Source of the DNA: Psammoneis japonica
Taxonomy: Eukaryota
DNA: 64,000 nucleotides
Reading direction: 5' to 3'
Assembly (NCBI GenBank): GCA_008632985.1
Contig: QPGO01000019.1
Location: 1 to 64,000, forward strand
This document shows, in pieces, positions 14,909-62,049 of this stretch. How positions within the stretch are numbered: position 1 is the stretch's first letter; every line of letters begins with the position of its first letter. The position numbers and the translations under genes were made by a program. The notes under the pieces were generated by a model, which made no database searches, was not told the DNA's origin, and worked only from the letters and a program-made list of their open reading frames with translations.

Positions 14909-15847
14909 GGCAGACAAAAGTGGTGTCAGGACAAGCAATTCTTGTTGGGAAGCGAAGGTGGACTTGAAACTTGGGTGAGAACAGACTTGACTTGAAACAG
15001 ACTTGACTTGAAATCTTGAACTACCTTAAAATCAGAAGTCGCCCGGCTGTGCTGTCCCATTCGTTGTCAAGTGCCAAACTTCCCATCCAGTCGGCAGAGT
15101 TGTGCCGGCACGTCCGAACCCGCAGCTGGTGGCACTTTGGGTTGCTTGCGAGCAGAGCAGCGGGTTGCAAACCCCTGCAGGTGAGCTGACCAGAGGTGGA
15201 CAAGACCCCCGAACCGTTCTCACTTTATGTCGGTTGGATTTCCCGATCAGGCTGGCCAGTTGACGCAGGCGTCAGGCGCTGTGGACGAACGAACAAACGC
15301 GGGAAAACACCCTCGCCCCAACGCAGGCTGCAATCACGGCTGCTTGCTCTCACAGTCATCCTCGTGGACCTGGTGGAACTGCAAAGCACCAGCAGTCCGG
15401 GGTAGATCAGGTGCAATGGACTCGGTGTGCTTGCAGAGTGGTGGCAAAACTGCAGTCCAAAAGAGTGGGTGCAAGTTCTTGGCCGTGAAGATGTGCACAT
15501 GTGCACATGTCTTCAGCGACGAAGATCCTTGAATGTGTGGGGGTTCTTGACCGTCAACCGATGAACGGGTGTGTCAAGGGATGACGATCAAGGACAGACT
15601 TGGATGTGACCGTTGATGCATGTCTTCAGCGATCAAAGGTGGCACAATCAATCCAGATGTCCAGCGGCAAGGAGACTTGACGGTGACGTTAAATTCCTGC
15701 CGATGCCTGGCATTGAACGCACGCAGACTTGCCGATGTATGTAGAGTGCACACGGAGGTCCACACAGAATTGAAACAGCGTCGTCAGCAAATCAACGACG
15801 ACGATGGCGGTTGCTCAATGGGTTGACAATGAGCAAGACTGTCAATC

Positions 15848-16123
15848 TGACAGAAATTGAAGGCAAATGGCAAGAATTCAAACAACAACTCCTTGCTGCT
15901 GTCTAAACAGCAGATGAGTCTCCGCTCAGAGACCGTCACAGGAGCCGAAAGACGTGTGAGTCGGTGCAATCGGGCCACTGTTGTCATTCTTGTGAGCCTT
16001 GTGGCTCGAAAGCAAACTGCGTCGTGCGCGAATGCGCGGAACTAAAGCACACAAAACTGTGCGCGGTGAACTGAACAGCGCGCGACATTTCGCGTGCACC
16101 CAAATCCTGTTCAAATCCTGTCA
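15848..16123 (-). repeat. 5' LTR of copia copy 2
   Basis: Matches 9034-9309; followed on the minus strand by the PBS variant GATTGACAGTCTTG. Confidence 0.96.
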
Positions 16124-17269
16124 CGATCACCAAAGTTTCGGAGCTGGTGGAGAAGGTTGATTCGTGCCAACAAGCAAAGGAGCTGGCAACTCAAATTGAT
16201 GCCTGCATCATCCTGTTTGCCCATGCAAGAGGGCACATGGTTCACCCTTTGAATCTTGGCAATGGGACATCAGACGACACAAAGGGAATCGCGCTGCTGC
16301 ACTGCGCACCCGACAATTGCAGTTCTTGTCTCTCAATGCTGGACAAAGCTGTTGGGAATGGCTCATCGTGCCTCAGCTTCATCTCCAACTCCAGTTGTTG
16401 CATCAATGCATGCAAGTGCATTTGGGCGGCAATGCATTGCAAGGAATGGATCGAAGATGCCAAGGAATTGGCCAGGTTCATTTGTGCAGTTGACTTGAAT
16501 CCAGTTCTGGTGGAGAAGAAGAGCAAAAACCGACAGCACGATGAGTTTTGCAGGACAGTTGGATGGTCTAAAAAAGAATGGCATTGGTTGGCCGCATTGA
16601 GAATGGAACTGCGGGCAAAGGCAATTTGCCTTCGAGACCGAAAGGGTGGTGCACCACTCATTGCTTGTGGAGCCAACCCACGCAGAGCTCTCCAGTGGAT
16701 GAGCAAGTGTGATGCTGTCAAGATGCCTCACTGTGATTTCGAGACAAACGATGATCATGGCGTACGTTCCGTGCTTCATCCACAAGCATGGTTTGGTGCA
16801 TCCATTTGTGCAGAACTCCACGTGCTTGAGAATGTGTCGCAGAGGGAAATCAACGACTGCAATGCAAACTGTTTTTGTGGGAAGTTTCTTGAGCATCAAC
16901 ACAAGATGAAGAAGGCTGCGCTGTTCTCAAAACGTTTGCAAGCTGTGGGTGCAACCAAAGAGGATGCATGAGAGTGTGAGTTGGAGGCGAAGCTCATCAA
17001 AAGAAGGCAATGTCGGAGCTCATGTAAAAATTCAAAAAAAGCGTTTTGACAAGAAAGAACTCAGCTGCTGGTCAAGAAGCTTGTCAACACATGAGAGAAA
17101 TTTGTTTCAAGACATTGCACAAAGAATGAATTCGAAATGATCACCTCGAGTCGGAGACGTTCCATGGAATGATGCTGCATCAACACGCGTGTCGAATTCT
17201 CAGCGCAGAGTTAGGGGCTGGAACGGGCTTGACTCTTTGTCAACACAGAACGGCAATGAGGCTGTTGTG

Positions 17270-19830: not shown

Positions 19831-20104
19831 CTCATTGGCAACTCGGAAGCCCAGCCCAGCTTGCCTCAGCCTCCTCCTCCTCCGCTTCCAGTCTGCACTC
19901 AGCTCCCAGGTCATGTGATTGCAGCACACCCGCGCTTGCTTCCGCCTCCTTTGCACCTCTCAGCGATTGCCGGTTCTCCACCCATTGTTCTTCCTTCTGC
20001 TTCCGCCCCTTCACTCGTTCTTGCTCTTAATCCCGCCATGAAGACAGCTGTTCAGCCCCAACAGCCTGTGCAGGTTGTGCATTCCTCCAACCCAGGGTTT
20101 GCAT

Positions 20105-20250
20105 GCCCTCCGCCACCACCACAAGTGCACCCGCTGCTGCCGCAAGTGCATCCGCCGCCACCACAAGTGTGTCCGCCGCCGCCACAAGTGCACCCGCCGC
20201 CACCGCAAGTGTGTCCACCACTGCATGTGTGTCCGCCACTGCAAGTGCAC
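20105..20250 (+). repeat. 21-bp minisatellite encoding PPPPQV(H/C)
   Basis: CCGCCGCCACCACAAGTG-NNN units. Confidence 0.8.
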
Positions 20251-20971
20251 TGTCACCCCTCCTCTTGGGGGGAAAGGAGGGAAAAGCATTGTACAGCAGG
20301 AAGAGAGGGTTGTGAAAATGTCAGACTTTTGTGACTGGCGACAGCTCCGTAGAAGTGATGCCAGCATGTCGCGTAGAAATGAGAAACGAACATCCTGTTT
20401 TTTTGACAGACTGCGGCTGGCGTCGCTTTGCTCGCACGACTTCTTGCGGTGATCTGATTCTAGAGACAGGTGATCAGTGGGGATGGGAGGACTTTGCTGG
20501 CGCAGTTGGTCCCTTTCCATTCCCAAGCTGGAACAGCATGGCCAGAGGGAGGGAGAGGTGGGAGCGCTTTTAGACTGTCCACTCGGCTTGCTGCCAAAGC
20601 TCTTCAGAAGAATGAGCAACAGCAGCTTGCTTCCAAATGCCAACTTGAATGTGTTCAATGTGGCAGATGCGGGGGGTGATTTCCCGGTGCGTCATCAATG
20701 GGCAATGAGGTCATCTCCCCTTGTTGGTCTTTACGAGGCCAGCGACTGGCGTCGCTTTGCTCGCACGACTTCTTGTGGTGATCTGATTCTAGAGACAGGC
20801 AATTGGCAGGGATGGGAGGACTTTGCTGGCACAGTTGGTCCCTTTCCATTCCCAAGCTGGAATGGTGTGGCCGTTCCGGCGCCACCCACGCACACTGGTG
20901 CAGGTGGTGGCGGTGCAATTGGGTGGGTGGGTGGGCCCGGCTGGAAGGCTGAGGCGCGGCCTGTGATGGAA

Positions 20972-22127
20972 TCACTGGTCGGCGGCAGCAAGGGGCACGT
21001 CGGCATTGGGGTGTAGGACAAATTGGCCGCCCGCCAACATGCAGGTTGCGAAATTGCACATGACGGGTTCTGCTTGTAAGTGGAGGTAACGGAGCATCTC
21101 GTCGGAGTGCCATCGGCCTAAGAGGCGGATCACGTCAGTGTCAACATGGGCACATAGGAGGGCCATGGCACCAGCCGTGCGCAAACAGCGAGCGGAGACA
21201 TCGGCGGGTGTGAAACCCAGCGTAGCGGGGCCGATTGCCAGAATTGCAGCACGCAGGATGCTGGTGATGTCGGCGGGAGAGACACGGCACCAGGTGTTGT
21301 CATGCAAGCACACACCAAGGGGCATGTCTGGTGTGGCACCAAAGGTGCGGAGATGTTTCACGCGACGGATGAGGGCGCGTGTCGGACAGAGGTCAGGGTG
21401 TCCGGATGGGCCAAGACCTGTCACTTCACCATGCACGCCATTCTTCTGTGTGGCAAAAAGTGAGCGTGCCAAAGGTGGCGGTGTCGAGGTGTTCATCGAT
21501 GCAGGTAAACAAATCGAGGCAAGCACCTCCCGCGGAGAGGCGAACGTCCCCCAACCGAAATGGAGTGGTGTCGGAAGGGGTGGCGGTGCATTCGCCTGGC
21601 CGCAGGAGGAAGAAAAAGGCCAAAGCAGTCATGTCTGTGATGGCTTGGGTGCCCGGATGGTTGGTCAGGGAAGCGGCATGGGCAATCCACAAGAGGACAG
21701 CGACGGGGACCGGTTTGACCCGGTCTGGCGGAGGATCCTCTTTCTTGTAGAAACGGATTTGGCAGCCAACGCTGAAATCCATGTTGCCTTGGAGTGTGTG
21801 CCGCGGGTCCAGGGACCCCATTGCAGCAAACGTTTGGCCAATTGACCGTAAGGCACCCTCAGCGGTGCGTGCGCGGACGGGATTGCCACGTGGGGCGATG
21901 GCACCTGTACGGAATCGGTGCACAAAAACTTGGAAAAAGATGACTGGGTCGTTGACGTCTTGCAAGAGAGGGTCGAGGGCCAAGTCGTTACAGAAACTTC
22001 GCCAGAGGTCCCAGTGGGCATTGCTGGAGCTGGCGGAAGAAGCGGCAACGCCGTGGGCAATGGCGTGTTGCACAGCGCCGAGATCACCTAGGAACGCAGC
22101 GCGGGTGGAGGGGTCCAAAGGCGCCAA
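20972..22127 (-). pseudogene. Tyrosine recombinase of the Ngaro element (frameshifted)
   Basis: FFFLLRPGE, SARCLRTAGAMALL and LLGRWHSDEMLRYLH motifs in ORFs 21426-22127 and 20972-21526. Confidence 0.9.
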
Positions 22128-24500
22128 GAGGGAGTCTGTGGGCAGTGAGTGTTAAAATGTTGCAAGAAGGAACAGTCAGACAATTGTTGCAAGCAAGAGG
22201 CGTCATCTGCAGCGGTGTTTGGTGGTCCCGGCAAGCAGTCGTGGAGAGACAGGTGGCAGTGGAAACGTTGGTGGTGACCTTGGTGTCGAAGGAGGGGTGC
22301 TGCGACCTTCGCAGTCGTGGTGGAGCCCTTGTGTTGACGAAAGAGAGTGCCGGTGTTGTCCGCACGGTCAAGCACTGTGCGCTCTCGAACGTCGAAACAG
22401 TCCACCGCTGCACAGGATTGCACAACACTGCCGACCAACTCCAAGTCGGTGTTGGCAATGGGGCCGCGGGGATTCTTAAAAGTGGACAGGCGGTCGGTGA
22501 CTGCTTGAGGGAAATGCATGCACCAGACGATGGGTCCGGCGTCATGTTGTGGTCTCCGACGGCAAGCAGTGGAGTGACGCAGCGTGGTGCTGCGTGCGAC
22601 CACTGACAGCGCAGGGAGAAGGACGCCACCTGCACCATGACCGGCTGCATCATGGCAGCCCGTGACAGTGGGCGACAGGGGGACAAGTTCTTGGATGCGG
22701 GTGGGGCGGAGATCGAGCCCGCAGCACAACAACCGAAAATCGTCCAACATGTCATGAAAGTTGCGGGCAAGACGAACTCGCCCGTCGGGTTTGGTGTGGA
22801 GCAAGGCTTCTTGACGTGTTCCAGCTCTAGGTGGGACCTCGTACTGCTGAACTGTGACACAATTATTTTTTGTCATCCGTGGCATGTTTCGCACGTACAT
22901 TTCTACGTGTTCTGTTGTAAAAAATTGTTCCACACTGCCTGTTTTGCGAAGCCAAAGGCTTTCTGTCATCTGCACTTGTGTCAACAAAAATGCACTGGGC
23001 ACATTCTTTAATGTCTAAAGAACACACCCGGGCATGCTGCAAAGAATGCACTTCAAGTGTGGAGGAGGAGATGCGTTCACAAAATTGCCTCTTTTTCTGT
23101 TGGCGATCATTCATGTGTCCATTGCTTGATGATTTTACTGCGGAGCTCGCACGTAGAATTCTGCGGGCCCAATGTCACAAAAAGTCCCACCTGGGACTGG
23201 AACCCGTCTCTTGGAGTTCGGAGAACAGATTGCGAGACCCGGGAATGCCGGGCGTGAGGGATCGCAGTTCGCCAAGAAGCTTGTGCAGGTCGGTGAGCAC
23301 TGCCCGCTTGCGGTGGCAGGGAAACTCTTTGTGCAGCGTGGTGCGGAGGCGCTCGCAGCGTCGCGGCGTAAGGCAGATGGTCATGGACAAAGTGTCAATG
23401 ATCCACCCTAGGACCTCCTTCTGCATTGACCAAGTGGCGTCGCCTTTGCGGAGCTTTTTGACTGAGATTGGCTCCTTGCGACTCGCGTGATCTCGGTCGT
23501 CGAGTGGACGAAATGCATCGTCAATGGCGTGCATGATTGTGTGATGCACGTTGCGCAGCGATTGTTTGGAGCCTTGGGCGGCGCCGACAAAGTCATCAAC
23601 GTAGACACCGGCGCGGTGGTGCACGAGGTGTGGATCCGGCATGTCTGGCACTGGGACAGCGATGGACGGATTCACGTCAGCTGTCAAGGCAAGGTTCGAG
23701 TGGGTGTTCCGGTGCCCGACGGTTGTGCACGAGCTGGCGATTTGCAATGTCGGCGACTGTCTTGGTCGCCGTGCCAAATGCCAGAGGTGAGTTGGACCAT
23801 CCCATGGGTGACCGAGTTGGCATGGCCACCAGGGGAGGTTCCCCAGGAAGGCGGGAAAAAACCACACCCAGTGTGGGTGCTTGCTCGGGTGCCAGCTGCA
23901 TGCGGCAGAAACCATCCGCTGGGTCAATCTTCATTGGATGGATGCGGCCCTTGTTTGGATTGGCAAGGAGAACGTGCCGAAGGATGCGGTCCAGCGTGCG
24001 CCCGAACTGCATGGATTCCATTGGCACGTTTGGCTGAGCAGAGGGATCAACACCGTAGAACGTGTGATCCACAATCGGTCGTGGTCTGCGTGCGTGTTGT
24101 GGGACAACGCTGACAGGACTCAGCCGTAGATTGGGTTCATTCTTGACGTTGTTGCATGGAACAACCACCCAGAAACCCTTGTCAACACAGTCAGACATGT
24201 CTTCGCACAAAAACTCAATGTGTTTGTAGGCGGACTTGTGTGGTCCTCGAGCGATGCTACCTTGGAGCTCAGCGTTGGACCATGGCTCGTCTGCAACAGT
24301 GACCGGCACCCCTCGACATTTGCAACCGGTGAGCACTCGGTGTGCTGCATGCTGTCGCATTGTCACCAATGGTCCCCAGTCACCTCTGCCACTGCGCAGA
24401 CGTGACAAGCAACTGAGGCCTCTAAGGCGCAACAATTTTGCATCGCGTGTAATTTGCTTGCCTGATTTGTCAGTCAGTGCTGATGCAGCCACATCCTGTC
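22088..24500 (-). pseudogene. Reverse transcriptase / RNase H of the Ngaro element, interrupted by a TIR element
   Basis: LRLSPVSVVPQ..RRPRPIVD, KIDPADGF, GVYVDDFVG, KEVLGWIIDT, RNase H-like DAAGHGAGG. Confidence 0.88.
22813..23208. mobile_element. 396-bp non-autonomous TIR element (MITE), 4-bp TSD TCTT
   Basis: TIR GACG(T/G)GTTCCAG....AGGTGGGAC; TCTT at 22809-22812 and 23209-23212; excision restores LFSELQE-ALLHTK. Confidence 0.92.
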
Positions 24501-24629
24501 CACGTGTTGTGGGGCGGAAGTTCTGTTTTCTAGACTCCACTTGTGGGGGTTGTGGATGCATGGGCTTGTGTGCCCGTGCGGGAAGTGGCTCTTGGTTCCA
24601 TGTCCCCGAGCAGGAACCATTGCCGATGA

Positions 24630-27300
24630 CCTGTTCGGTCTTCCAATGTTGCGCACCCCACATGAGAAGGTCGACCTGCTGGTGCTCCGTGTGGCTGTGA
24701 TGATGATCGGCGCGTGATCCGCAGTTGTTGTTGCACTGTCCGATGAAATGGCATGGGAGACAACGTGGTGCCCCTTGGGAATCCGTGGGCAAGGCGACAT
24801 TGTCACGGGTGCAGCACTGCTTGACGGTGCTCGAACGTGCATTGGGACGCTCCCGTGAGACCGTGAAGCGTTCGTCGTGCTGTTCGTTGTGGATGATGGA
24901 ATTGTCGCCAGGTGCATTGATGCGGTTTTGTCCTGGCTGTGGCTGCCCAGAAGTCTGCGAACGCGGTGTCGTGGGCGGTTGAAGGACAGACGTCGGTGGG
25001 TCGAGATGCCAACAGTGGGCGCCTTGTGCGGCCTCAGCCACCACTGGGAGCGGTTGAAATGGGACAGGGCTTTGTGAGTGCATTTGCGCCTGGAACCAAT
25101 GGCACAGCTTTGCCTGCGCGCAACGTTGCAGGTCCGCTGGCAACATCGGGTGCGACACCACTTGCACCGCCAAATGACGCGTTCCAGCCCCAGGTGGGAG
25201 CTCTCAGCACTGACATGTGACAACAACAATTTTTGTCATCCGTCGTGTGTTTTGCATGTAGCTTTCTACGTGTGACATTAAAAAAAAATTGTCCAGACTC
25301 GCTGTTTTGCGAAGCCCCAGACGTTTTATGCAACAAATTTGTGGAAACAACAATGTGCCAGTTACATTCTTCAATGTCTGAAGAATGTAACTGGCTGAGT
25401 AAAAAATGATGTGCTTCAATCATGTGCGAGTTTGTGCGTTCGCAAAATTGCCTCATTTTCTGTTGGCGATCATTGACACTTTAATTGCCGTGTGATTTTG
25501 CTGCGGAGCTCGCACGTAGAAGTCTACGGGCCCAATGTCACACGGATTCCCACCTGCGTCTGGAACGCGTCAAATCGTTCGCGCAGACATCCATTGACTG
25601 GCGCATGTGAGTCAACCACTGTGCCAGTGGATGTGCCACGCCAAAGGCTGCTAAGAGAACGATGCACAAACCATTGAAGGACTGCTGAACTGCCTGGATC
25701 GCAGTGGCCACCATGGCGTCGTCCGGGGCCTCCAACACACGCACACCCACCAAGGACGGTGTGCCATTGCCTCCATGAATCTGTTGACACATGGAGCTGC
25801 GACAGGCGGTCTGCTCGGCTTGCTCCAGTGCAGTGATGCCAAACAAGAAGGGGGTGATCCCCTGAGTTAATTCGTCCTTGTCATGCCCAGCAAAGTCGAC
25901 TTGGGTGAGTTTTGTGACCAGGTTCACGGTCACTGGCACGCTGAAGCACACGTGGTGTGCTTGACGTTGCTCGTCGATTGCATTTTGGATGGCAGCAATT
26001 CGGCCGGTCTTGGGAGAGGCTGCCAGTTGCGCCCAGAGTGGTGGCAGGTTGGCTTCATGATGCACCTGGCACAAATGCATGAGTTTGGCGACGCCAAACT
26101 CTCCGCAGAACTCCGTCGGTGTCTTGCCGCGCGATGCCGCCTGTTCCGCGTCTAAACGTTGTTGGCGCTGTTCTGCTGTTAAGCTCTCGATGGCCGTGAC
26201 CACTGGTTCGAACTGGCGCAGTTGCGGCAGTTGGCCTGCGTGGTGCGGAAGATCACGCTGCACCATCGTGTCAAAGAAACAAATGAGCACTTCGTTGGGT
26301 GGCTGCACCATCATTGGCCATGCTTGCGCTGCTTCGGATGTGTGTTGGTCCCATGCTGTCGCGCAACACGCCACCTTCAAAAAGTCCAGAAGTGGCCTGC
26401 ATTCATTGACCACATTGGCAGCTGTGACAGCCCCCAGTGCCCGGGTGAATGCTTGCTTCAGCATCAACGGCATTGAAAGCAAGAGATTGGCACATGCGAA
26501 TGGCGCCATCATGGTGTTCTGTGTCCTGACCTCAACCGCATCTGGGTCGTTCGGCTGCACTTGTGGGTGCAATCCTTCCGGGGTCGTAACAATGTGAGCT
26601 TGCAGCGCTGCGTCAGTCGGCACCCACGTGCCGTGTTGGGCCAGCTGAAAGGCATCGTCAGCAATCGGTGCAAGTTGGCATTGTCCCATCGTCAGGTTGC
26701 CTGCGAGCGCAAAGAATTGTCCGTCCCACGGTTGTGCTGGTCCCTGCCACCGTGATCGGGTGCTGGGTTGTGCGATGAAACACCTGCACAACTCCCGCGT
26801 CGTTGCCTCCTTGCACCCGGCAGTGCTGTGCCAGTGCCACAGGCAAATCGTGCGAAGAAGCTGCTCCAACACGGGTCCTCAGCACATCAGGATCACAGCG
26901 GGGTTGCCCTTGCAGTGGGACCATGAAGTCCTGCATGATTTCCGCACAGTTGCCGGCGCACGGATCCTTTGTGGCGTGCAAGCAGCAATCCCGACAGGTC
27001 CGGATTACTGCCGGTGGTGCTGGAACTCCCTGCCCCACAGGACCTGCTGGCGGCACGGGTGGTGCTTGAGGTGCCCGCTGTTGGGGAGCCCCTCCCGGGG
27101 CTTGTCCTCCCTGCGCTGCGGCAGGTTGTGCCGCTGCTCCTGGCACTGCCGGCGCCATGGGATGCACTGGTGCTGGCGGCACGTTCTGGGCGTTGTTGGC
27201 TGCGGGAATCAGTTGTTGGGGTTGTTGAGCCGCCGCAGCGGCATCCGGCGGCGGATTGTTTCCGACATTTCCGTCTTTTGGTGCATGACGTGTGACTGTC
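24630..27300 (-). pseudogene. Gag-like ORF1 of the Ngaro element with C-terminal Cys/His finger (limits approximate)
   Basis: ORF pieces 26658-27425, 25538-26872 and the 5' part of 23677-25173 (RCLPCHFIGQCNNNCGSRADH); located upstream of RT. Confidence 0.65.
25176..25571. mobile_element. 396-bp non-autonomous TIR element (same family), 4-bp TSD AAAT
   Basis: TIR GACGCGTTCCAG...CAGGTGGGA; AAAT at 25172-25175 and 25572-25575; excision restores LRERF-GGASG. Confidence 0.92.
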
Positions 27301-27812
27301 CTGCGAGCTTTGTGGGTGCAGCAGCGGATGGCATCCTCCGCCGAACACAATGGCGCTTTTAGACTATCTATTCGGCTTGCTGCTAAAGCTCTTCGGAAGA
27401 ATGAGCAACAGCAGCTCGCTTCCAAACGCCAACTTGAACGCGTTCAATGTGGTAGATGCGGGGGGTGATTTCCCGGTGCGTCATCAACGGGTAATGAGGT
27501 CATCTCCCCTTGTCGGTCTTTACGAGGCCAGTTATAATAAATAAGAACGCGCGCACCAGAACCAAGAACCAAACCGGTCACCCACATGTTTTGATGACTT
27601 GGTCAACAGCTTTCTACCCGAAAGGATCGTCTGGAATGGAAAATAGGAGTAGCAAGTCTCCATTCTGTAGTGGAAAAGTAGTGCCTCCGCAGTACCGACT
27701 GGCATTATACGGCGAGTGGAGGGAATGGAAGCGAAAAGCGAAGTAGTATATATGGTACACTCGCGTGTAGTAGTTACATCACATTTCACATATAAGTGTT
27801 TAATTTGAAACC

Positions 27813-30800
27813 CTAAAACGGATCATTTTCTGTATCCTCGTATTTCTCCCAGTATCCAGTTGTGTGACTATGGGCTTGAGAGCAGGCGGTGACAAAAAGA
27901 GGCTCCAAGGCCTTTGGATGGTGTGCTTGGGTAAGACAGTTGGTTGGCTGATCCACAGGCCGAATGTCAAACCGGTGGAATCTGAAGCTTCCAAATCCTT
28001 CCCCTGGCCTCCATCTTTGTCTTGATACACTCGGATCACAATCTAGAAGTGTGACGGCCTTTTCTCGCGTAGGTCTGACCCCAACACACCTGTTCGTCCC
28101 CACCATTCTGATCATGTCTCCCGGCAAATTGTCTACCTCGGACGTGAAGTCAAATTCCCAAAGAGTCGTGTTTTCCAACCTGCAGTGGTCAACCCTCAGG
28201 CGACCCTCAATGAGATTCATGCACCACTTCTTTTCAATAGTCTTGTTTTGCCACCTGTAGGTGGAATTCCAGTAGAGCTTGATTGCATGGGGCGAAATAA
28301 CCTGCGCAGTTGGGGCTGGAGATGAGCTCGGTGCTGCAGTCATGTCGAAATTGATCCCGACTTCATTTCCTTGGATGTCAAACTCCCGAATAGAATATCC
28401 ATCGTTGGTTCCACTCTTGATTCCCTTCATGGCGACATATCGTCCAGTCGCGCCACTGTCGAGAGGGAGAAAGTCCGTTTTCGACGTGCTGTCTACGATA
28501 GATCTCCGGACAGTCCAGACATTGGCATCGTTGGAGGTTTCAATGTCGTAAGTCCTCCCTGCTGCCGGGCCGTCTTTCCAATACATTATGATGCGGTTGA
28601 TTTGGTACTCCTTACCCAAGTCGACATAAATCCACTCATCGTCCCCGGGACCACTTTGCCAGCGGGTGCTTCTTACCCCGTCGATGGCGTTAGTCGCCGG
28701 CAAACTCTCCGTCTCTGATGAAGCCGTCACTCCCACGCGCGGAAGCATAGCTCTTGGATCAAACGGAAGCGAACCTTCGGAAGTTGGAGCTGGAGTAGAG
28801 ATATCTCCGGTAGTTGGAGCTGGTGTTAGAGGAGTTCTGGTTGGGCTTGGAGTAGCGACCGGCGAGGGCGTCACACCAAGGAAATCTCCAAAAATCTCAA
28901 ACTCTCGAATGGAATACCGATTGGCATTTCCTCGACTGACTCCTCTCATGCGGACATACCTTGTGACAACTCCCACAAAGAAATTAACGACCTCAACCTT
29001 TCGATTACTCCGAACAACGGATTCCTGCTTGTTCCATGTGATGGCGTCGTCGGATGTTTCAATGTCGTAGCTCCTGCCAAGACCCTTCACCGGAGACCAT
29101 TGTAGGATCACTCGTGTTACGGAGTACGAATCGCCCATATCGACATAGATCCACTCATTGTCTTCAAGCTTACTTTGCCAGCGTGTGTCCACCATTCCAT
29201 CGATAACGTTACTTGCAGGCAATACCTTGGTATCAGAAGAAGCCTTGGCCGCTCTTCGAGGAAGAGTCGAATAGCTTGACGTAGCTTCCGCAGTTGAAAA
29301 AATAGTGGGAGACGGCGTGGCATTCGGATCGAAAACTGTAGGACTTGGCGTAGTGGACGGCTCCGCACTATTTGGGTCACCTTCGACGATAAACTCTCGT
29401 AGTGAGTACCCTCTGATGTTATCGAGTTTAACTCCTTGCATTCTGACGTATCGCGCCTTCGCCGTGAAGAGGATGAATATCGTCTGCTTGTTGCTATTCA
29501 TGATGGACTTTTGGGTTGTCCAATCTTTCAAATCCATGGAAGTATCGATGTTGTAAGTCCATCCTCGCTGTTCCGCTGCTGGCCAAAAGAGAGTTAATCG
29601 ATTCACAGCATATACTGCTCCCAAGTCTACGTAGATCCATTCGTCGTCGGTGGGGTCACTTTGCCAACGGGTGCTCTTCACACCATCGATCGCGTTTTTC
29701 TCTGGATATCTCGGCAACGCCGATGAAGCAGTAACTCCAACTCGTGGGAGAGGAGATCTCACTGTCGCAGTTGGAGTTGGCTCCTTAGTTGCCATTGAAG
29801 GACTTGGCGTCACCTTAGGATCAAACACTGTCGGACTTGGTGTAGTGGAGGATTCCTTGCTACTCAGGTCTCCTTGAACGATGAATTCTCGAAGGGAGTA
29901 CCCCCTCGCAGCATCTCGTTGAACACCTCGCATTCGAACATACCGTGCCCGTGCTGTGAAGAGGATGTATATTGTCTGCTTCCTACTCTTCGAGATGGAC
30001 TTTTGTGTCGTCCAGTTGCTCAAATCAGTGGAAGTGTCAATGTCATAAGTCCATCCTTGCCCTTCCGCCGCTGGCCAAAAGAGAACCAATCGAGATATCG
30101 TATAGACAGCTCCCAAGTCAACGTAGATCCACTCATCATCGGTAGGGTTACTTTGCCAACGTGTGCCCTTCACGTCATCGATTGCGTTTTTCTCGGGAAG
30201 TCTTGGTAACGCCGATGAAGCTGTTACACCTACGCGTGGGAGCGGCGCTCTTGGGTCAAATGGTGTTTGTGTTGGTGCTTGTGTTTTGCCTGAGCCGATG
30301 GCATTTCCTCTCACTACAAACTCCCTGAGAGAATATCCTCGTACAGATCCTCGCTCCAAACCTTGCATGCGAACATAGCGTGCTTTGGGGAGCCACTCAA
30401 GATCAATGGTGTCAGCTCTGTTAAGACTCTGAAACACGGTTTTCCCAAAACTCCAGTAATTCGCGTCCTCGGAGGTCTCGATCATGAAGGTCCTTCCCGG
30501 TGCTTCTGCCTCCGTCCAGAACAATTCAACCTGACTCACTTCGTAGACATCGCCAAAGTCGACGTAAATCCATTCGTTGTCATTGGCTTCGCTCTGCCAA
30601 CGAGTGTCCTTGCGTCCATCGATTGCGTTCTCGAGACGAAGACTTGGTGTTTCTATCGAAGATGAAGCAACTGCCTGAACAAGAGGCAAAGTAATTTGAA
30701 GTTCCCGTTGTGCTTGTCTCTCGTTCTTGTCTCCTTCAATCGTTTCCCACAATGGGCTCTTCGCAGGAGCCAAGTTCAAAGCATTGACACCTGCTACAGC

Positions 30801-30842
30801 CTCAATCGCAACTAGGATGGACAGTATTGATGCCACCCACAT
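27813..30842 (-). CDS. Secreted protein with five F5/8 type C (discoidin/CBM32-like) domains, Thr/Pro linkers and a C-terminal ricin-B-like domain
   Basis: Signal peptide MWVASILSILVAIEAVAG; five ASS...NAIDG...TRWQS...EWIYVDLG...RYVRM.G...YSLREF repeats; Cys/Trp-patterned C-terminus. Confidence 0.9.
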   Translation of the reverse strand: MWVASILSILVAIEAVAGVNALNLAPAKSPLWETIEGDKNERQAQRELQITLPLVQAVASSSIETPSLRLENAIDGRKDTRWQSEANDNEWIYVDFGDVYEVSQVELFWTEAEAPGRTFMIETSEDANYWSFGKTVFQSLNRADTIDLEWLPKARYVRMQGLERGSVRGYSLREFVVRGNAIGSGKTQAPTQTPFDPRAPLPRVGVTASSALPRLPEKNAIDDVKGTRWQSNPTDDEWIYVDLGAVYTISRLVLFWPAAEGQGWTYDIDTSTDLSNWTTQKSISKSRKQTIYILFTARARYVRMRGVQRDAARGYSLREFIVQGDLSSKESSTTPSPTVFDPKVTPSPSMATKEPTPTATVRSPLPRVGVTASSALPRYPEKNAIDGVKSTRWQSDPTDDEWIYVDLGAVYAVNRLTLFWPAAEQRGWTYNIDTSMDLKDWTTQKSIMNSNKQTIFILFTAKARYVRMQGVKLDNIRGYSLREFIVEGDPNSAEPSTTPSPTVFDPNATPSPTIFSTAEATSSYSTLPRRAAKASSDTKVLPASNVIDGMVDTRWQSKLEDNEWIYVDMGDSYSVTRVILQWSPVKGLGRSYDIETSDDAITWNKQESVVRSNRKVEVVNFFVGVVTRYVRMRGVSRGNANRYSIREFEIFGDFLGVTPSPVATPSPTRTPLTPAPTTGDISTPAPTSEGSLPFDPRAMLPRVGVTASSETESLPATNAIDGVRSTRWQSGPGDDEWIYVDLGKEYQINRIIMYWKDGPAAGRTYDIETSNDANVWTVRRSIVDSTSKTDFLPLDSGATGRYVAMKGIKSGTNDGYSIREFDIQGNEVGINFDMTAAPSSSPAPTAQVISPHAIKLYWNSTYRWQNKTIEKKWCMNLIEGRLRVDHCRLENTTLWEFDFTSEVDNLPGDMIRMVGTNRCVGVRPTREKAVTLLDCDPSVSRQRWRPGEGFGSFRFHRFDIRPVDQPTNCLTQAHHPKALEPLFVTACSQAHSHTTGYWEKYEDTENDPF

Positions 30843-31229
30843 GTTGCTCGGTTGGTGCCTCAAGGTTTTCGATGGACACTTTGTGGCAAGCAAAAGAAGA
30901 ATTGACGGCGGCAAAAAGTGACTGTGGTGCGAGGAATGAACGAAAAGTGGAGCGGATTTCATAAGACTGCGAATCTTTGTGCCCTCCCGTTGTTTCTACG
31001 TGACTCCCCGGTACTAAAACAAAGATTTATCACAATAGGAACAACGTCAATAAATGATGTCATTCGTTAAATAATTTTTCGTCCTCCCTAAAATGGGTTA
31101 AATGATTTCGACAGATTCGGGATTTAGCTATTGCCCTGAGGGTTACGATATTTTTTTTTCCTTGTCGAGGATTTGTCTTGCGCGGTTATCATGTTCGTCG
31201 TGCCACCTCAGGTTACGGCTCGAGCTCAA

Positions 31230-34200
31230 TTGCACTTTCACGAATGGACTCCACCAGTGGCTCGCTGTCAGGAAACGCTGAGAGCGCTTGCCACTCATGT
31301 TCCTCTTGTCTGTCATTGCTTCCACCATTGGAGCACATGATGCAGCCTGATGATGCAGAACAACGACTGGTGGGTGCCAGCTGGGGAAAAGAAGTCTCCT
31401 GTTGTGCTGCAGCCGTTGACCACCAGTGGCGAGAACCACACAAAGATTCGCCCACCTGGTTGGACCAAACTTGCACCAGCTTCTGTCAGAGGCAACTTTT
31501 TGACAATGAGGGCCAATGAGCTGTCATCAGAAAGTGACACAAAGAGAGCGTGTCAAAAACTTCAGGTGCCGCAGCACAGGTCCAGAAGGTCAGCCATCAA
31601 AAAGAGGGGCATTTGGCAAATTTTCCATCTGTCTGTGCCAGGTCTGACACAGGTCATGAAGCACTGCACCAAGCTTGTGGGAGTTCAGATGTCAAGCAAA
31701 GCACAAGCAAAACATTTGGGTCATCCAAGGCTGTGTGGCTGAAGAACAAACCAGTGCTGTGTCATCAAGAAGCCCTGCCATGCCCAGCTGCGCAAAGCAC
31801 AGCAGCTGTGATGGCACACCCAACCCACGGGCTGCACTTCTGGGGGTGCATAACCTGGCAGCTGGCCAATGAGAAAAAAATCACAAACCAATGGAGCAGG
31901 CTCTTCCTGGCCTCCATCGGGTCATGTCTTGTTGCTGTCTCTCACAGCATGGTTTTTTTGCATTTTTTGTTTTTGCATTGGGTTGCATCAGAGGATGCTT
32001 TGAGAAGCATTGTTTCAGCTAACTTGCAGCCATCAACATGTGAACAAGAAGAAAAAGCAACAGTCATTTTTGCACTGGCTGCCACTGGATGCACGACATG
32101 CTCTCCAATGATGGCTGACCACGCAGGCTCAGCGCGGGACATTGCACCCAAAACCAGGGTCAGCGCGTCTTCATTTTGCCACCGTGCCAATGAACTGCAT
32201 GCATTCATGAAAATAAATCTTCAACAATGGGTCAAATTTCATCCATTTGCACCGCGCTGATGTGGCCTCGTGCAGTGCTCAGCTTGGTGACTGTGAACAG
32301 GGTTGCAGCCAGTCAACAACAAATGCCAGTTGTCGGCATTTCCCAGAAAGTTGTGGCTTGTTTTTGTCTCTCACAAGAAGGATGGTTGTGGCAAAAATTG
32401 GTGGTTTCAGCTGCATGGCAACTGAACACAATCTGACAGGTGGCACTTGAAACTTCAAGTGGTGTGCATCTCTTGAACCACTGTGATGGCCCTGACAAGG
32501 GCTTGATGAACACACACCAGTGTTGGGGGGGGGGGGGTCTCCAAGGCACATCACCAAAATGACATGGCAAAGCATGGGAAATGCAAGAGCTGTGCAAACA
32601 TGTCCTTGACAACAAATGTTGTTTCTGCAGATCACTTTAAAACTGTGCGCAGCAGCCACAGTGTGGGGTGTGACATCAATGCAGAGCACATGCATGGGAG
32701 TTGGTTGAAACAACAAATTTCAAGAATTTGGTTTGTTGGGGGATGAGCCCAAGCTGCACTTTTTTGCAATCAAACAGGTCAGTTGAAGTGCCCCTGGCAC
32801 ACCACACGTGAAAGTGTTCCAAGCAAGTGAGAAATCTAGAGAAGTCAAGAGTCAAGCCACTCATCCAAACAATGGCGCATTGTTGAGTGGTTGTTTGACA
32901 AAACCTGCACATGGGTTTCAACAGCAAATGTGGCAGCTCCTTTCTCAAGAGATTGGAAAAAACATGCCCACAAGGCACGCGCTTTTTCAAACAAGCACGA
33001 GTGGCATTTTTGCCAGAGTGTCATCATTCAAGAGCACTCAGTCAAGCCAGTGAAATGCCAAAGACAGAAATGAGCTCATCGACAGGGGGGGTGCCATCAG
33101 CGCAAAAAGGAGTTGTGACTCATCTTCTGCCAAATCTGTGCACTTTTGGTGAGAGAGCAGTTGTTCACTGTGCTGAAGTTGGCTTGCACAAAGCTCTGAC
33201 TCACAACAAGATGAGCATTGGGAACAAGCAGAACAAGTTGTTTGTGCCACAAACAATGGGAGGAGGTCAAATGGATTTTGCAGCTCTGCACAAAAGTGAC
33301 AAGAATGACAAGTGAGCTGAGTGAGAGTGCAGGAGAGTCAGGAACTGGGCAGACCACAATGTCAGAATCTGGTTTCACATTGCAGCAACAACAAGTGTCA
33401 AAAGATTCAAAGTGCACAAGAAGAGTTTGAGGGGTGGGTGGAGGTGGCTTTGCAACTGGCATTGATGTCAGGTGTGCAACAATGCATGTCTCCAATGTGC
33501 ACAGGCAAGTGCTGATCACATGTTGTGCAGCAACAACATGAGAGCAAGCCACTTCTTCTGCCATCCTCCCAGCATGGCAAGTTGAGCAACTGTCAGGGTC
33601 AAAGTGTTGCTTGCAAGCAACAGCAGACACAAAGACTGATGGAAGGTGGCAGCCAACACTTGCCATTGCCACAGTCTTCTGACATTGAGAAATGACCCAA
33701 TTCAAGCAAAGACAAGGCTGGCAAACATGTTGAAATCTTGTTTTGAAATCTTTTTTCTGTCAAATCCTGCAGTGCACCCATCATCTGCATGAAACTTGCC
33801 AACAGCTGCAGAGTGCCCCCAATCATTGCACCAGAATGTTCAGAAACAGAGGGGAGAGAAAACATCCCCTTGGCAGCCATTTGCCCAAACCACACGAAGA
33901 ATGCACAGAACATCAGATCCAAACCCATGCTCATCTGGTGCATCCAAAAAATGTTCTTGGTCAATGGAGTCACATGCTCTTGCCATGTCAAGAAAGATCT
34001 GGTGACATTGAGCGTGCACATGTCTCACATTCACAGCAGAAACAGAGACCATGTGAGCATCAGGATGAAGCTTGACCACCAATCATCAAGCAGCCCTTCT
34101 GCAAACAGTGAACCCCCACACAACTTGGCAGTTCAAGAAGAGCAGCACCACAAAACTTGCCCAGCTGTTCTTTAGGATGAAGAGCAAAAGAGTGGAGTTG

Positions 34201-35000
34201 GAGCAAGAGATGACATGGGAAGTGGAAAACACAAGAACAACTGACCAAAATGGCCACAATGAAAGAGCCCCCCACTCCCAATGAAGAGGAGTGGGCTCAA
34301 CTCAGACACAACAGAAAAGGACCTGAGACATGCCCTTTAAAAGAGAAAGTGCAAAGAATCTCACATCTTGCAGCACCAGTCAGAACCATTGTCTAGAGTG
34401 GGGCAAGTGATGACAAGGACAGTGAGAGATGGGCCAATGACGGGGCTGTTGGAGAGCAGAAAATTTTGTGCTTCTTGTTGCTCAGCCATTGCAAGTTCTC
34501 AAACAAAGGCTTTGTGGTGCAAAGGAGATCAACTTGAGTGCCACTGCCATTGCATGGTGTGATGTGCCTCATGAGTTTCACCCCCATTGCAGATGTGCTG
34601 CTTCTGGCAGCTGAGGCAATGACAGCCTCCAGCTGCAGCCAAGTGGGGGGCATTCCAAGGAAGAGAAAGAAGAGTGTTGCACTTGTTTGGCAGCTGTTTT
34701 GTCATTGAGACAACAACAAAGCTGGCAGTGATTCGCAAAAGAAGCTTTTCCATCGATCAAATGTGTCATGCATCTGATGCATCTGAGCAACTTTTTGCTC
34801 TGCCAGTTTGTGCTGCTGCTGTGACAAGAAAGGATGTGTGAAAGAAAAAACAAGCAAAAGAAGACAGAGCTGGTGCAAGTTGTTTCCACAAATGCTCATC
34901 GTCTCTCACAACATCTTTAGAGACCTCTCCCACGAGCTGGCCAATTGCGGTGGCCAACTGAAAGTCACGAAGGCGTCTGAACCGTTTCTCAAAACTCAAA
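31230..35000. other. Heavily decayed island (probable old TE), almost free of TpA and poor in CpG
   Basis: About 9 TA dinucleotides in 31261-34980 by hand count; no recognisable protein. Confidence 0.75.
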
Positions 35001-35109
35001 ACTGCCATAAGCAGAGCACAAAGAGTCGAATACCCAGCTGCCTTCTCTCTAGACTCTAGACCGTAGTTCAGCACCTGTTGAAAATAACTCTCTAGCTAGT
35101 GATTGCATT

Positions 35110-35281: not shown

Positions 35282-38200
35282 TTATTGCTCATCATACCGA
35301 TTCCAAAAGCCTGTAGTGTGTCCATGAGCAATATCACATGACTGAACAAGTACTCTTTCTCCTGATTTTGGGAAATGTGGCTGTGATACGCATCGAGTTG
35401 GTTGATCAACTGGTCGGATATCAAACCTGAATTCTCTGAAGGATCCAAACCCGGGACCAGAAATGAACCTTTGTCGAGTTATCAGGCTATCACAATCAAA
35501 GATGGAGATTGAATTGTTATTTTTCGGTCGAATCCCAAGGCACTTGTTTGAGCCAGACTTTCTTATCATGTCTCCCGCCATGCCATCGACATCTGATTGA
35601 AACACAAACTCCCACTGTGTGGTGTTGTCGAAGAAGCACTTATCCACAACCAAGACTTTGCTGGGGAGGTCAACCAAGCAGTAAAATTTTTCTTTGGTAC
35701 GATTCTGCCATCTGTAGCCTTGTTCCCAGTAGAGTCTTCACGTATGGAAAGAAGCAGTAAAAGCATTAGCTAAGAATAAAAATCAAACCTCTTGAACGCA
35801 ACAACCAAAACGTACCTAATGCTATGAGATACGTCGGCGGTGGGCGGCCGTATAATGTCACCATTCCTCGGAGTTGGGCTCATTGTAGGAGAAACTAGAT
35901 CTGGAGGAGAGTCAACAGAGCTGCCTTGTACTTGGAAGTCACGAATAGAATACCCGGCATCTTCGCCCCGGCGAATGCCTTTCATCCGTACATACTTAGC
36001 CGAAGGTCCACCAGGAATATCGATGACATCCCTGGTGCTGACGCTATTCTTCTTTACAAAGACAATGTTCCATCTTCTCGCGTTGGTCGAGGTTTCAATA
36101 CGATAACTTCTTCCTTTCCCTCCTACCTTTGTCCAATCTAAAACAACACGAGACACTGAATACAACGCACCAAAGTTCACGTAGATCCATTCGCCATCAT
36201 TTGCATCGCTTCTCCAGCGAGTGTCTCTGGAATCGTCAATCACGGCTTTAGCAGGATACCTGCCGGTCTCGGTTGATGCCACCGCACTAATGAGCGGAAG
36301 GGAACCAGCTTCCGGTGGTGGAGCTTGTCCAGGTGTCGGAGAAGGCGTTTGAACGGGCAAAGGAGTAGGCTTGTCGTCGGTTCGGATCCCTTCTATTTGG
36401 AAATCACGGATTGAGTATCCCGAATCCTCGCCCCGGCGAACGCCCTTCATCCGCACATATTTTGCCGAAGGTTCATTAGGAAGATCGATAACATTCTTGA
36501 CGCTGGCGCTATCCCTCACTCGACGCTCGACCACCCATTTCTTTGAGTCGGTCGAGATTTCAATGTTATAACTTCGTCCTGGCGAGCCTAATTTTGTCCA
36601 TTCTAGGACAACTCGGGTGACTGTGTACATAGCACCTAGGTCCACGTATATCCACTCTGTATCCCCTGCATCGCTTCTCCAGCGAGTGTCTCTTGACTTG
36701 TCAATCACGGCATTTGCAGGATACCTCTTTGTCTCGGATGAAGCCTTCACACCGATGCCCTGAGGAAATTAGCTTCTGGTGGAGCTGCCTGTGCCTTTGT
36801 CGGAGAAGCTGTTGGAACAGTCGGAAAAGTAGGCTTGCCTCCGACTGGGACACCTTCTATTTGGAAATCACGAATTGAGTATCCCGAATCCTCGCCCCGA
36901 CGAATGCCCTTCATCCGTACATACTTAGCCGAAGGTTCCTTAGGAAGATCTATTATATCCTTTGGGCCGGCGCTATCCCTCACCCGACGCTCAACCATCC
37001 ATTTCTTCGCGTCGGTCGAGATTTCAATGTTGTAGCTTCTTCCTTTCCCTCTTAAATATGTCCACTCTAAAACAACTCTGGTGACTGTGTGAATAGCCCC
37101 GAGATCGACATAAATCCATTCTGTATCCCTTGCATCGCTTCTCCAGCGAGTGTCGCTTGACTCGTCGATTACGGCGCTCGATGGATACCTCTTTGTCTCG
37201 GATGAAGCCTTAACATTGATAGGCAGAAGGTAACTAGTTTCTGGTGGCGCTGCATTTGTCTTTGTCGGAGAAGCAGTTGGAATAGGCGGCAAACTAATCT
37301 TGCTTCCGACTGTGACACCTTCTATTTGGAAGTCACGAATTGAATATCCGGTGTCCTCGCCTCGGCGTACACCTTGCATGCGTACAAACTTCGCAGAAGG
37401 CCCGCTAGGAAGATCGATGACATCCTTGATGCTGACGCTATTCTTCACTCTGTGTACCACAGTCCACTTTTTTGCGTCTTTCGATGTTTCGATGTTATAA
37501 CTTCGTCCTGGAGGGCTTACTTTTGTCCATTCTAAAACAACTCGTGTCACTGAAGATACTTCGCCAACTTCTACATAAACCCACTCTTTATCATTTGCAT
37601 CGCTTCTCCAGCGAGTGTCTCTCGTCTCGTCAATTACGGCACCCGCTGGATACCTGCTGGTCCCTGTTGATGCTACTGCACTGATACGTGGCAGGACGGT
37701 GGCTCCATTTGTTGGTTTTTCCTCAGTCTTCGCACGAGTCGGAGCTACTGCTGGAATCGGAGGTGGAGCATTCGGGTCTCCAACGGGGCTACCCTCTATC
37801 TGAAATTCACGAATTGAATATCCCGCATCCTCACCCCGGCGTATACCTTTCATGCGCACAAACTTTGCTACTGGGCCATGAGGTAGCTCGATAACCTCGA
37901 TTCGATTGGCACTATTCCGCACGACATCCTCGACGTTCCAAGTCTTGGCATCTCTTGAGACTTCAATGTTATAGCTTCTTCCGTTCCCTTCTGTTCTTGT
38001 CCATTCTAGTATAACTTTTGTCACGGAGTAGGTTGCCCCGATATTGATATAGATCCACTCGCCATCTTTTGCATCGCTTCTCCAACGAGTGTCGCTGTTC
38101 CCGTCGAGGACCGCGTTCGCTGGATACCTCTTCGTCTCACTCGATGCAACCGCCCCAAACCGCGGAAGATCACTAGGTATAGGAGCTGACTTGGGAGCAT

Positions 38201-38729
38201 TCTGAGAATTCTGAGGAGAATGCATAGGCGTAACGTCTGAGTTTGGGCTTTCTCCGTAAAGTTCAAATTCTTTGATTGAATATCCCGGTCCACTCCCTCG
38301 TTTCATGCCAGTCATACGAACATATCTTGCTGTATGGGGAGATTGCAAATCCATTACATATATCTCTTTCGTGCTGTTTTTCACAGTCCTGTGAAGCTTC
38401 CATTTTTTCGCATTTTTGGAGCTTTCGATTCTGAAAGACCTTCCCACTTCGTCAGCACTACTCCAGCGAATGACTGCACGACCGAAAGGATACGACGCAC
38501 CCATGTCAACGTAAATCCATTCATCATCCTTGTCCTCACTTTGCCATTGAGTTCTCTTATCTCCGTCAATTGCATCATCTTTGGAAGAGAAGAATCGATT
38601 CTTTACCGATGAGGCTGTTACATTAATGCGCGGTAAAGCCTCACGTAGCCGTCGTTTCGTCGATCCAGGCTTTCCCAATATTGGTTGACCGCTCAACAAG
38701 ATAATCAACAAGGTTTGAAGGATCCTCAT
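35282..38729 (-). CDS. Secreted protein with six F5/8 type C domains plus ricin-B-like domain; intron 35736-35815; apparent 1-bp deletion near 36757
   Basis: Signal peptide MRILQTLLIILLSG; GTACG...GAAG intron joins HSIR to LYWEQGYRWQ as in the paralogs. Confidence 0.87.
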
Positions 38730-39391
38730 TTCGATAACACACTGCAAAGGGTGAGCCAAGCACCCAAGGTTGACTTTGCAAATCCTTAAAAAGCGAGAGG
38801 GTGCGAAGCGAAATGGAGAGAAAAATGAACACAAATTTCTGACCACTGCAAACGCAGAAACCACATGAATTCGCGTCAATTAAACTTTATCCAAAATTGT
38901 AGGTTTATATAATTTGAGGGAACACTTATTTTGTACTTCCTTTTCCAGTACCAACTTAAATGATACAAATATTCAGACATTCAATACTTAAGAAGATTTT
39001 CTGTTGGACATTTTTCTCTTGTTTTACGATCAAAATGCCTTAATTATAATCTGGAGTAGGAAGGTTAACACTTAAGACATATTCGCGTTCAGAAACTCGC
39101 TGAAAGAAGGATGATAGTACTTTCGTTCAGCAAGACGTTCTCGAAGCGTGCGTGCGTGAGGTAGGTCGCGTCATGATGATGTCAAGGGATTATTTTGGCG
39201 ATGTTGTGGTTCTCGTTTGCCTGCAATCTCCAAATCGCCGCGAGAGCGACACCTCATTCCAGATTGTTGCTGATCCAGATTGCTGATTGATGATTGATGA
39301 CGCCGGTGTTTGCTGATGGATAGCTTCCATCCTTGTCATCAGCATCACGACATGGACTACTTGTATTGAGACTGTTTGAAAAATTTGTATC

Positions 39392-61843: not shown

Positions 61844-62049
61844 GGCTTCTGTTGTTGCTTCTGACTTTTGAATCACACTCCAGAAGCCAAAAGCCAGCAG
61901 CCCCGCAACGATGCACCACGCACGCACGCGCGCACAGGCCGGAGTTTTTGGCGCGCCATGTGATCGCCACACACATGTGTAATAGAAAATCTGTGTAGAC
62001 TAATAAACAAGAACCTCCATGCCCACTTTCTAGCAGGTTTTTCTAACTG

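Follow-up and report, generated by a model that had tools for sequence, protein, structure and literature searches.

The window analysed here comprises 64,000 nucleotides from Psammoneis japonica (GenBank assembly GCA_008632985.1, contig QPGO01000019.1, positions 1 to 64,000), and contains a domain of nearly 3.8 kb, island 1, from which TA dinucleotides have almost disappeared and CG dinucleotides have largely been lost. We consider it probable that, taken as a whole, island 1 reflects two dinucleotide-specific transition processes, TA to CA or TG and CG to CA or TG, which would have run nearly to completion in a silenced domain. An earlier note on this DNA, made from the sequence alone, had proposed TA-targeted mutation combined with CpG decay and had regarded the island as a late stage; this core reading is backed by neighbouring sequences in which the direction of change can be polarised. 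Comparisons among these sequences show that the TA process acts in place and after integration, that it is TpA-specific, transition-only and domain-restricted, that it strikes both strands site by site, and that it is faster than CpG decay.

Composition and borders of island 1

Between positions 31230 and 35000 there are 9 TA dinucleotides versus 248.3 expected from base composition (observed/expected ratio, o/e, 0.04) and 43 CG versus 219.0 expected (o/e 0.20), together with 466 CA (o/e 1.82) and 392 TG (o/e 1.84). The combined shortfall of TA and CG (~415) is nearly balanced by the combined surplus of CA and TG (~390). Among the other dinucleotides, AA occurs 384 times (o/e 1.19), and the o/e values of TT, AT, GC and TC are 1.29, 0.77, 1.29 and 1.02, respectively. 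The surplus of GC and the shortfall of AT are consistent with TAC>TGC, GTA>GCA and TAT>TGT conversions. With ordinary DNA, defined as the non-depleted parts of the window (1169 TA in 29,138 bp), as the baseline, 152 TA would be expected in island 1, and the Poisson probability of finding 9 or fewer is ~1e-52.

The nine surviving TAs are located at positions 31851, 32020, 32214, 32638, 32837, 34173, 34338, 34394 and 34918, in the contexts ATAA (two), CTAA (one), TTAA (two), CTAG (two) and TTAG (two). These counts agree with the earlier note, which had reported about 9 TA where at least 200 were expected, CpG nearly gone, no surviving TA followed by a pyrimidine, and seven survivors with the YTAR context (Y, pyrimidine; R, purine); on the + strand no pyrimidine follows any of the nine, and 7 of them are YTAR. 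The proposed target, TA rather than general WA (W, A or T), is likewise in accord with the AA value.

The domain is delimited by TAs at 31214 and 35008. On the left side, 15 TAs lie within 31012-31214 and the next one is at 31851, and on the right side the final island TA at 34918 is followed by dense TAs from 35008 onwards. The CG edge is more gradual, with near-normal CG up to ~31450 and again from ~34900. Thus, the abrupt borders previously placed at ~31.2 and ~35.0 kb hold for TA, whereas those for CG are softer.

Direction of change in neighbouring sequences

The transposon zone of the window (Table 1) contains two elements, A and B, which belong to the Ty1/copia group based on the presence of RVT_2 domains (E=4e-27 and 3e-25) and long terminal repeats (LTRs) of 250-280 bp. 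Related polyproteins have a length of ~1900 aa and are 64-72% identical. Over 7080 aligned columns the two copies differ by 465 substitutions, including 399 transitions, and 329 of the 465 are found at sites with TA or CG versus CA or TG (CA-versus-TG sites included). One-sided TA sites are strongly asymmetric, with TA in A and CA or TG in B in 84 cases and the reverse in 8, and for one-sided CG sites (131 in total) the corresponding numbers are 86 and 45. At 53 sites one copy has CA and the other TG, which points to an ancestral TA or CG struck twice independently. Only ~5 of these 53 are estimated to derive from CG (by arithmetic from the CG loss rates), so most of them were formerly TA. Since A and B have 28 TA (versus 84 and 8 one-sided) but 420 CG (versus 86 and 45) in common, TA decays several-fold faster per site than CG.

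The outcomes at TA sites in B (TG 48, CA 36) form 47 runs versus 42 expected (p=0.28) with no strand clustering, which favours events that occur independently at each site, like those of CpG decay, and speaks against processive bursts on a single strand. Other outcomes account for 4 of the 124 TA sites, and nearly all changes are transitions.

These rates bear on the idea that the TA mutations are a by-product of the repair of deaminated 5-methylcytosine (5mC), in which T:G mismatches would lead to long-patch, error-prone resynthesis by a Pol eta-like polymerase. Polymerases of this type have a WA hotspot and favour A>G, and both the occurrence of TA and CpG loss in the same domains and the extension of TA loss 120-245 bp past the CpG-depleted core of island 1 would fit. 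However, the loss is specific to TA and not to WA, the predicted A>T/A>C component and the AA hotspot are largely unseen among the nearly pure transitions, and per-site TA loss is far above CG loss in the same copies, making this explanation improbable.

The two LTRs of one element are identical at the time of integration. Within elements, substitutions at TA or CG versus CA or TG sites make up 16 of the 19 LTR differences in B, 12 of 13 in the unclassified element C (7 of these 13 differences being of the CG versus CA/TG type), and 7 of 20 in A, and when the four LTRs are aligned, TA, CA and TG occur together at several positions. LTR pairs that were once identical therefore differ mostly at TA/CG sites, indicating that the changes arose in the chromosome after integration.

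At the protein level, tyrosine codons provide a direct readout. We used 39 positions at which at least seven of eight intact relatives have Tyr. At these positions copy B has Tyr 4 times, Cys 23 times and His 9 times, and copy A has Tyr 15 times, Cys 15 times and His 5 times, with 89-92% retention of other conserved residues. In a separate alignment with 15 homologues, Tyr was kept at 4 of 36 positions in B and at 11 of 28 in A. Cys and His at conserved Tyr positions are the outcome predicted by TAY>TGY and TAY>CAY.

TA loss is bound to domains and not to elements. The first 1076 bp of A keep 50 TAs where B has 7, and the edge repeat of element C (27353-27531) keeps TA and CG at sites which read CA or TG in its inner repeat (20564-20742). 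The spacers between the elements and the tandem array are TA-poor too.

These observations also bear on editing before integration, in which retroelement RNA or cDNA would be modified by an ADAR-like A-to-I activity and the changes fixed by reverse transcription. A>G changes with a 5' T preference are present in the retrotransposon copies, and Tyr>Cys, which corresponds to A>G on the sense strand, exceeds Tyr>His (23:9 in B and 15:5 in A). ADAR and APOBEC enzymes likewise produce transitions that cluster in retroelement copies and depend on the neighbouring base, but these enzymes act on RNA or cDNA prior to integration and on one strand. Here, the two LTRs of one element differ at TA sites instead of having their mutations in common, both strands are struck with no runs, and parts of A and one LTR of C escaped. 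Moreover, spacers, the tandem array, a gene fragment and the single-copy island 1 are affected although they are not retroelements. We therefore regard pre-integration editing as very improbable.

The gene fragment is located at the left end of island 2, one of two further TA-poor islands of the window (CG o/e across the three islands 0.15-0.33). It matches part of an ankyrin/NACHT-like gene in the purine/pyrimidine code with 83% identity (223 bits; shuffles ≤91) and at the protein level with 47.5% amino-acid identity (E=3e-8). The gene copy keeps its TA and CG, whereas the island 2 copy has lost them. Together, the polarised comparisons indicate that TA loss is mutation rather than native composition.

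The six frames of the transposon zone (1077-27359) have only TGA stops left, with overlapping open reading frames (ORFs) of 200-1100 aa on both strands. Since TAA and TAG have been lost, these long overlapping ORFs are not evidence of intact genes. No Pfam family was found in the four frames of element C tested, nor in four nearby ORFs. One minus-frame translation of element C ends in a motif that by eye is reminiscent of tyrosine recombinases, and the element might be DIRS- or Crypton-like.

Sequence context of TA loss

The contexts of the remaining TAs were compared with those in ordinary DNA of the window, where 174 of 1169 TAs (14.9%) are YTAR. This context accounts for 7 of the 9 survivors in island 1 (p=4e-5), 11 of 15 in the three islands (p=6e-7), and 83 of 213 TAs in the transposon zone (p=9e-18). 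Hence, the enrichment of YTAR in the NTAN spectra of survivors, which the earlier note had proposed as a test of its motif, was found. Its statement that YTAR is spared proved too strong, because 16 of the 27 YTAR sites were lost in copia B, where TA retention is graded (YTAR 11 of 27, mixed 13 of 50, RTAY 4 of 35; trend p=0.008) and no context is truly spared.

The preference for TAY is seen when changes are written as A>G events (63 of 131 with a +1 pyrimidine and 29 of 117 with a +1 purine), but an additive fit of the +1 base with 76 unmutated relatives as the baseline gave the order T (2.1) > A (1.05) > C (0.74) > G (0.57). Compared to the same relatives all contexts are depleted, with retention ranging from 0 for ATAT to 36% for CTAG, in a ranking that is approximate since the relatives differ from A and B in base composition. 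The TA process was shown to favour A/T-flanked TAs (TAT/ATA most, CTAG/CTAA least). The motif first proposed is a useful first approximation to a pattern that is a gradient.

Read contigs and sequence variants

Island 1 was compared with de novo k-mer contigs from run X1, a DNA run of the same sample as the assembly. Its k-mer depth in these contigs (~58x) equals that of the flanks, indicating that island 1 is single-copy and present in accurate reads. One contig of 4060 bp covers 32166-36225 with 13 letters different from the assembly. The sequence of island 1 is not an assembly quirk.

Within island 1 the assembly and the read contigs differ at 20 positions, including 11 of the CG<->CA/TG type and 3 of the TA<->TG type, the latter among no more than ~10 TA sites still present, and 3.2 kb of the flanks have 4 differences in all. 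Based on this variant spectrum, the TA process may still be active.

In the region 32054-32195, two alternative contigs of 142 bp, each with half depth (~31x), show 6 differences, mostly CG<->CA/TG, and look like two haplotypes of island 1. The bin 32308-32541 has a k-mer depth of 478x, a G run of ~15 bases, and loose contig ends at 32320-32357, and a short segment within it is probably repeated elsewhere in the genome. The left discoidin gene contains a TG/TA difference between assembly and read contig at position 29791, so TA<->TG polymorphism also occurs outside the islands. None of the contigs from a second run, X2, lie on island 1.

Related elements in metagenomes

Metagenomic relatives of the copia elements were represented by the best 80 of 186, a selection that disfavours decayed copies. 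The median TA o/e of 79 related loci is 0.72, and the copia family is therefore not natively TA-poor. Among these 79 loci the Tyr>Cys/His signature was found only in L059 and L055. L059, a 2766-bp contig with 66.6% nucleotide identity to copia A, has 3 TAs (o/e 0.02) and kept Tyr at 1 of 23 test positions (Cys 6, His 10), and L055 kept 13 of 27 (Cys 8, His 6). Both come from other records, and their signature argues against a one-off artefact. Four candidate proteins, P0121-P0123 and P0132, were rejected, because their high scores came from internally duplicated domains and Tyr was intact by eye.

The loci L001, L003, L004, L005, L052, L061 and L069 combine a CG o/e of 0.05-0.24 with a TA o/e of 0.49-0.70. 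CpG-depleted loci with ordinary TA show that the two processes are separable and that CpG decay proceeds in other hosts with no TA loss, which suggests that the TA process is a separate, host-specific addition to CpG decay. The Tyr>Cys/His signature in combination with a TA o/e map provides a simple screen for other genomes and metagenomes, with 2 of 79 loci positive here.

Comparison with known systems

One close parallel is repeat-induced point mutation (RIP), known from Neurospora and further fungi, which is likewise an in-place, dinucleotide-specific transition hypermutation that inactivates transposons and leaves sharp-edged islands of odd composition. However, RIP converts CpA to TpA, enriching TA and lowering the GC content, whereas here TA is destroyed and CpA/TpG are made (A:T>G:C), as reflected in the TA o/e of 0.04, the CA/TG o/e of 1.8 and the TAY>TGY/CAY changes. 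RIP is triggered by duplication and strikes both members of a duplicate; in this window the ankyrin gene copy is untouched, the extent of mutation differs between A and B, and the read depth of island 1 is that of a single-copy sequence. In addition, RIP creates stop codons, whereas TAA and TAG are removed here, and no strand-wise runs are seen. Fungal RIP also requires a protein of the RID/DNMT4 type and takes place before meiosis.

Decay of CpG through 5mC, as in vertebrates and plants, resembles the present pattern in its CG>TG/CA component, in being limited to transposons and silenced DNA, and in its gradual, site-by-site progress. In line with this, the CG>TG/CA transitions and the low CG o/e of the window are confined to transposon or putatively silenced DNA, but 5mC decay leaves TA alone. 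In PMC9998398, diatom transposons are described as CpG-methylated by DNMT5a, and some diatoms as carrying a DNMT4 of unknown function.

A third system is the thymine modification 5-hydroxymethyluracil (5hmU) or base J of dinoflagellates and kinetoplastids. According to PMC11572971, dinoflagellate 5hmU is produced by a TET/JBP enzyme and concentrated on repeats along with 5mC, and earlier studies reported that T is replaced preferentially in TA and TC. The likeness lies in the restriction to repeats, the reported TpA preference and the overlap with 5mC. In contrast, this modification is known as an epigenetic mark and not as a cause of TA erasure, and the features seen here are the TpA specificity of the mutations and their restriction to transposons.

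Full-text literature searches (supplements excluded) produced no description of TA>CA/TG hypermutation, and it was also absent from term look-ups in a 2025 diatom transposon preprint and in PMC2806351. Mutation directed at TA in silenced DNA appears to be undescribed.

Proposed explanation and candidate chemistry

We propose that island 1, which is single-copy DNA between two expressed-looking genes and perhaps an old inserted element, lies in a silenced chromatin domain. CpG decay would then come from deamination of 5mC in DNMT5-type methylated transposon DNA, and TpA decay from a lesion or modification that an enzyme introduces at TpA within these domains. Transposons would be inactivated with no stop codons being made, through conversion of Tyr codons to Cys or His, while TAA and TAG vanish and long false ORFs are left behind.

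For the chemical step at TpA, we tentatively favour deamination of the adenine in 5'-TA-3' to inosine, which is read as G, because the outcomes are clean transitions. Somewhat less likely is the oxidation of the T of TpA in silenced repeats to 5hmU or 5-formyluracil (5fU) by a TET/JBP-type dioxygenase, with mispairing to G resulting in T>C. This would account equally well for TpA specificity, transposon restriction and co-location with CpG decay, and the absence of strand clustering among the site-by-site outcomes agrees with bases being modified in double-stranded DNA. It also has a precedent in the dinoflagellate enzyme described in PMC11572971 (5hmU enriched on repeats, overlap with 5mC, preference for TA and TC). 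On the other hand, TC is not depleted in island 1 (o/e 1.02), and a literature search for 5-hydroxymethyluracil and diatom returned only dinoflagellate-centred papers. Furthermore, 5fU gives some transversions too, whereas the TA outcomes are nearly pure transitions, with only 4 others among the 124 sites. A chemical step that is neither adenine deamination nor thymine oxidation appears about as unlikely as the latter.

Several points weigh against the proposed explanation. Island 1 has no homologue or ancestral sequence in the searches made, and its mutational history is therefore inferred by analogy with neighbouring sequences; the silenced domain and both chemistries are deduced from sequence as well. 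The order of contexts varies by analysis, being C > T > A > G for the A>G events and T > A > C > G with the 76-relative baseline, and two of the nine survivors in island 1 are ATAA, a context ranked elsewhere among the most mutable. We know of no natural eukaryotic DNA adenine deaminase, and 5hmU is abundant in dinoflagellates with no TA erasure known to us. Finally, run X1 derives from the very sample that was assembled, and its platform is not on record.

The lack of a homologue to prove the ancestry of island 1 and the unrecorded platform would both be accommodated by a non-mutational account, either a native TA/CG-avoiding composition under selection or a sequencing or base-calling artefact at modified bases. 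This account is highly unlikely, because the substitutions polarised in dead transposons and in the gene fragment represent loss of TA and not native avoidance, k-mer contigs at ~58x reproduce island 1, two metagenomic contigs from other records carry the same signature, and the deficit of TA and CG nearly matches the excess of CA and TG.

The process may serve as a dedicated genome defence that is the mirror image of RIP, operating in this diatom and in at least one environmental organism through an enzyme by which TpA in silenced DNA is marked or deaminated. We advance this with reserve, as a possibility just short of an even one. Such a system would write A:T>G:C on both strands, erasing TA, converting Tyr to Cys or His, abolishing TAA and TAG and raising the GC content, and TpA would join CpG as a palindromic dinucleotide that is hypermutable and possibly carries an epigenetic mark. 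If real, TpA>CpA/TpG would extend context-specific hypermutation of silenced DNA by a new class and would imply that a major group of marine primary producers has either a naturally occurring adenine deaminase for DNA or a thymine modification that is mutagenic. TA-free dead transposons also have practical consequences, since they contain very long false ORFs in all frames with only TGA stops, evade homology-based repeat masking, and skew estimates of GC content and substitution rate.

Origin of island 1

A purine/pyrimidine-coded BLAST of island 1 against the window gave no significant homologue (best match 71.9 bits, shuffle maxima 61.9-69.9). Six of the 40 top weak matches lie at 37.5-38.9 kb on the minus strand, in the discoidin gene, but they were not backed by comparisons at the protein level. 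Pfam searches of the six frames with stops as X found 0 families at E<=1, and tblastn of 17 ORF translations from the window against the islands gave no match in island 1. HMMER searches with one of the six frames (1200 aa) against 1.84 billion representative proteins found 0 matches, as did Rfam at gathering thresholds for 30500-35800. Island 1 has no 3-base periodicity (signal 0.5-1.8 versus 2.5-7 in genes and 4-16 in copia ORFs). Since even hypermutated copia ORFs retain this periodicity, it is probably non-coding or very old.

No LTR-like direct repeat bounds island 1. The edges of its CpG-depleted core coincide with an imperfect inverted repeat of 27 nt with an alignment score of 17 versus a shuffle mean of 10.1 (sd 1.1, max 14), for windows that were picked after the match had been seen. 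The arm motif has no further occurrence in the window, and there is no comparable terminal repeat in its other islands. No target-site duplication was seen by eye, and no transposase was detected in the six-frame Pfam scan. The core may represent what is left of an element inserted long ago, perhaps with terminal inverted repeats.

Neighbouring genes and other features of the window

The features of the window are listed in Table 1. A ubiquitin hydrolase encoded in the window has its closest relatives (36-41% identical) in pennate diatoms (Cylindrotheca, Synedra, Fistulifera, Nitzschia), in agreement with diatom-like nuclear DNA.

Table 1. Coordinates of islands, elements and genes in the 64-kb window
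Feature	Position	Strand	Description
Island 1, TA-free domain	31215..35007		9 TA in 3793 bp (o/e 0.04), CG o/e 0.20, CA/TG o/e 1.8
CpG-depleted core of island 1	31461..34888		CG 29, o/e 0.15; edges match inverted-repeat arms
Left fringe of island 1	31215..31460		246 bp; TA 0 vs 12.5 expected; CG 10 vs 18.5, partly kept
Right fringe of island 1	34889..35007		119 bp; TA 1 vs 7.4 expected; CG 6 vs 6.8, kept
Imperfect 27-nt inverted repeat, left arm	31461..31487	+	Local alignment
Imperfect 27-nt inverted repeat, right arm	34862..34888	-	Local alignment
Transposon zone, earlier stage of the same process	1077..27359		TA o/e mostly 0.03-0.3, CG o/e 0.55-1.05
Copia-type LTR element A	2..7078	+	RVT_2; first 1076 bp with normal TA
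Copia-type LTR element B	9031..16124	-	93% identical to A, stronger TA depletion
290-bp tandem array	17290..19838		Copies vary among TA, CG, CA and TG at differing sites
Element C, unclassified	20564..27531		179-bp terminal direct repeats
Island 2	49427..51068		3 TA (o/e 0.03), CG o/e 0.20
Left end of island 2, mutated copy (inverted) of an ankyrin gene segment (57107-57408)	49420..49736	+	TA/CG of the gene are CA/TG here
Island 3, runs past the window end	62045..64000		3 TA (o/e 0.03), CG o/e 0.33
Flanking gene 1	27813..30962	-	1049-aa single ORF, five F5/8 type C domains, ordinary TA content
Flanking gene 2, paralogue	35770..38879	-	Two ORFs (326, 710 aa), F5/8 type C domains, 38-39% identical to gene 1

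The earlier note had placed island 1 between two intact paralogous genes. The paralogy of the two discoidin-type genes stands (38-39% identity), and the left gene is a single ORF, but the right gene is split into two ORFs which overlap by 4 nt, and its intactness is uncertain. A contig of run X2 omits 80 nt at 35736-35815. The omitted segment has CT..AC ends, or GT..AG when read from the minus strand, and these suggest that the right-hand discoidin gene has an intron close to its 3' end and that X2 may have come from transcripts.

Two other ORFs, 42299-43351 and 58867-59880, share ~70% nucleotide identity, and a Pfam scan of the latter found no family. The ORF at 53276-57676 (minus strand, 1466 aa) encodes a Schlafen AlbA_2 domain, a NPHP3/TANC-like P-loop region, a WWE domain and many ankyrin repeats, an architecture that resembles that of an immune-type NTPase.

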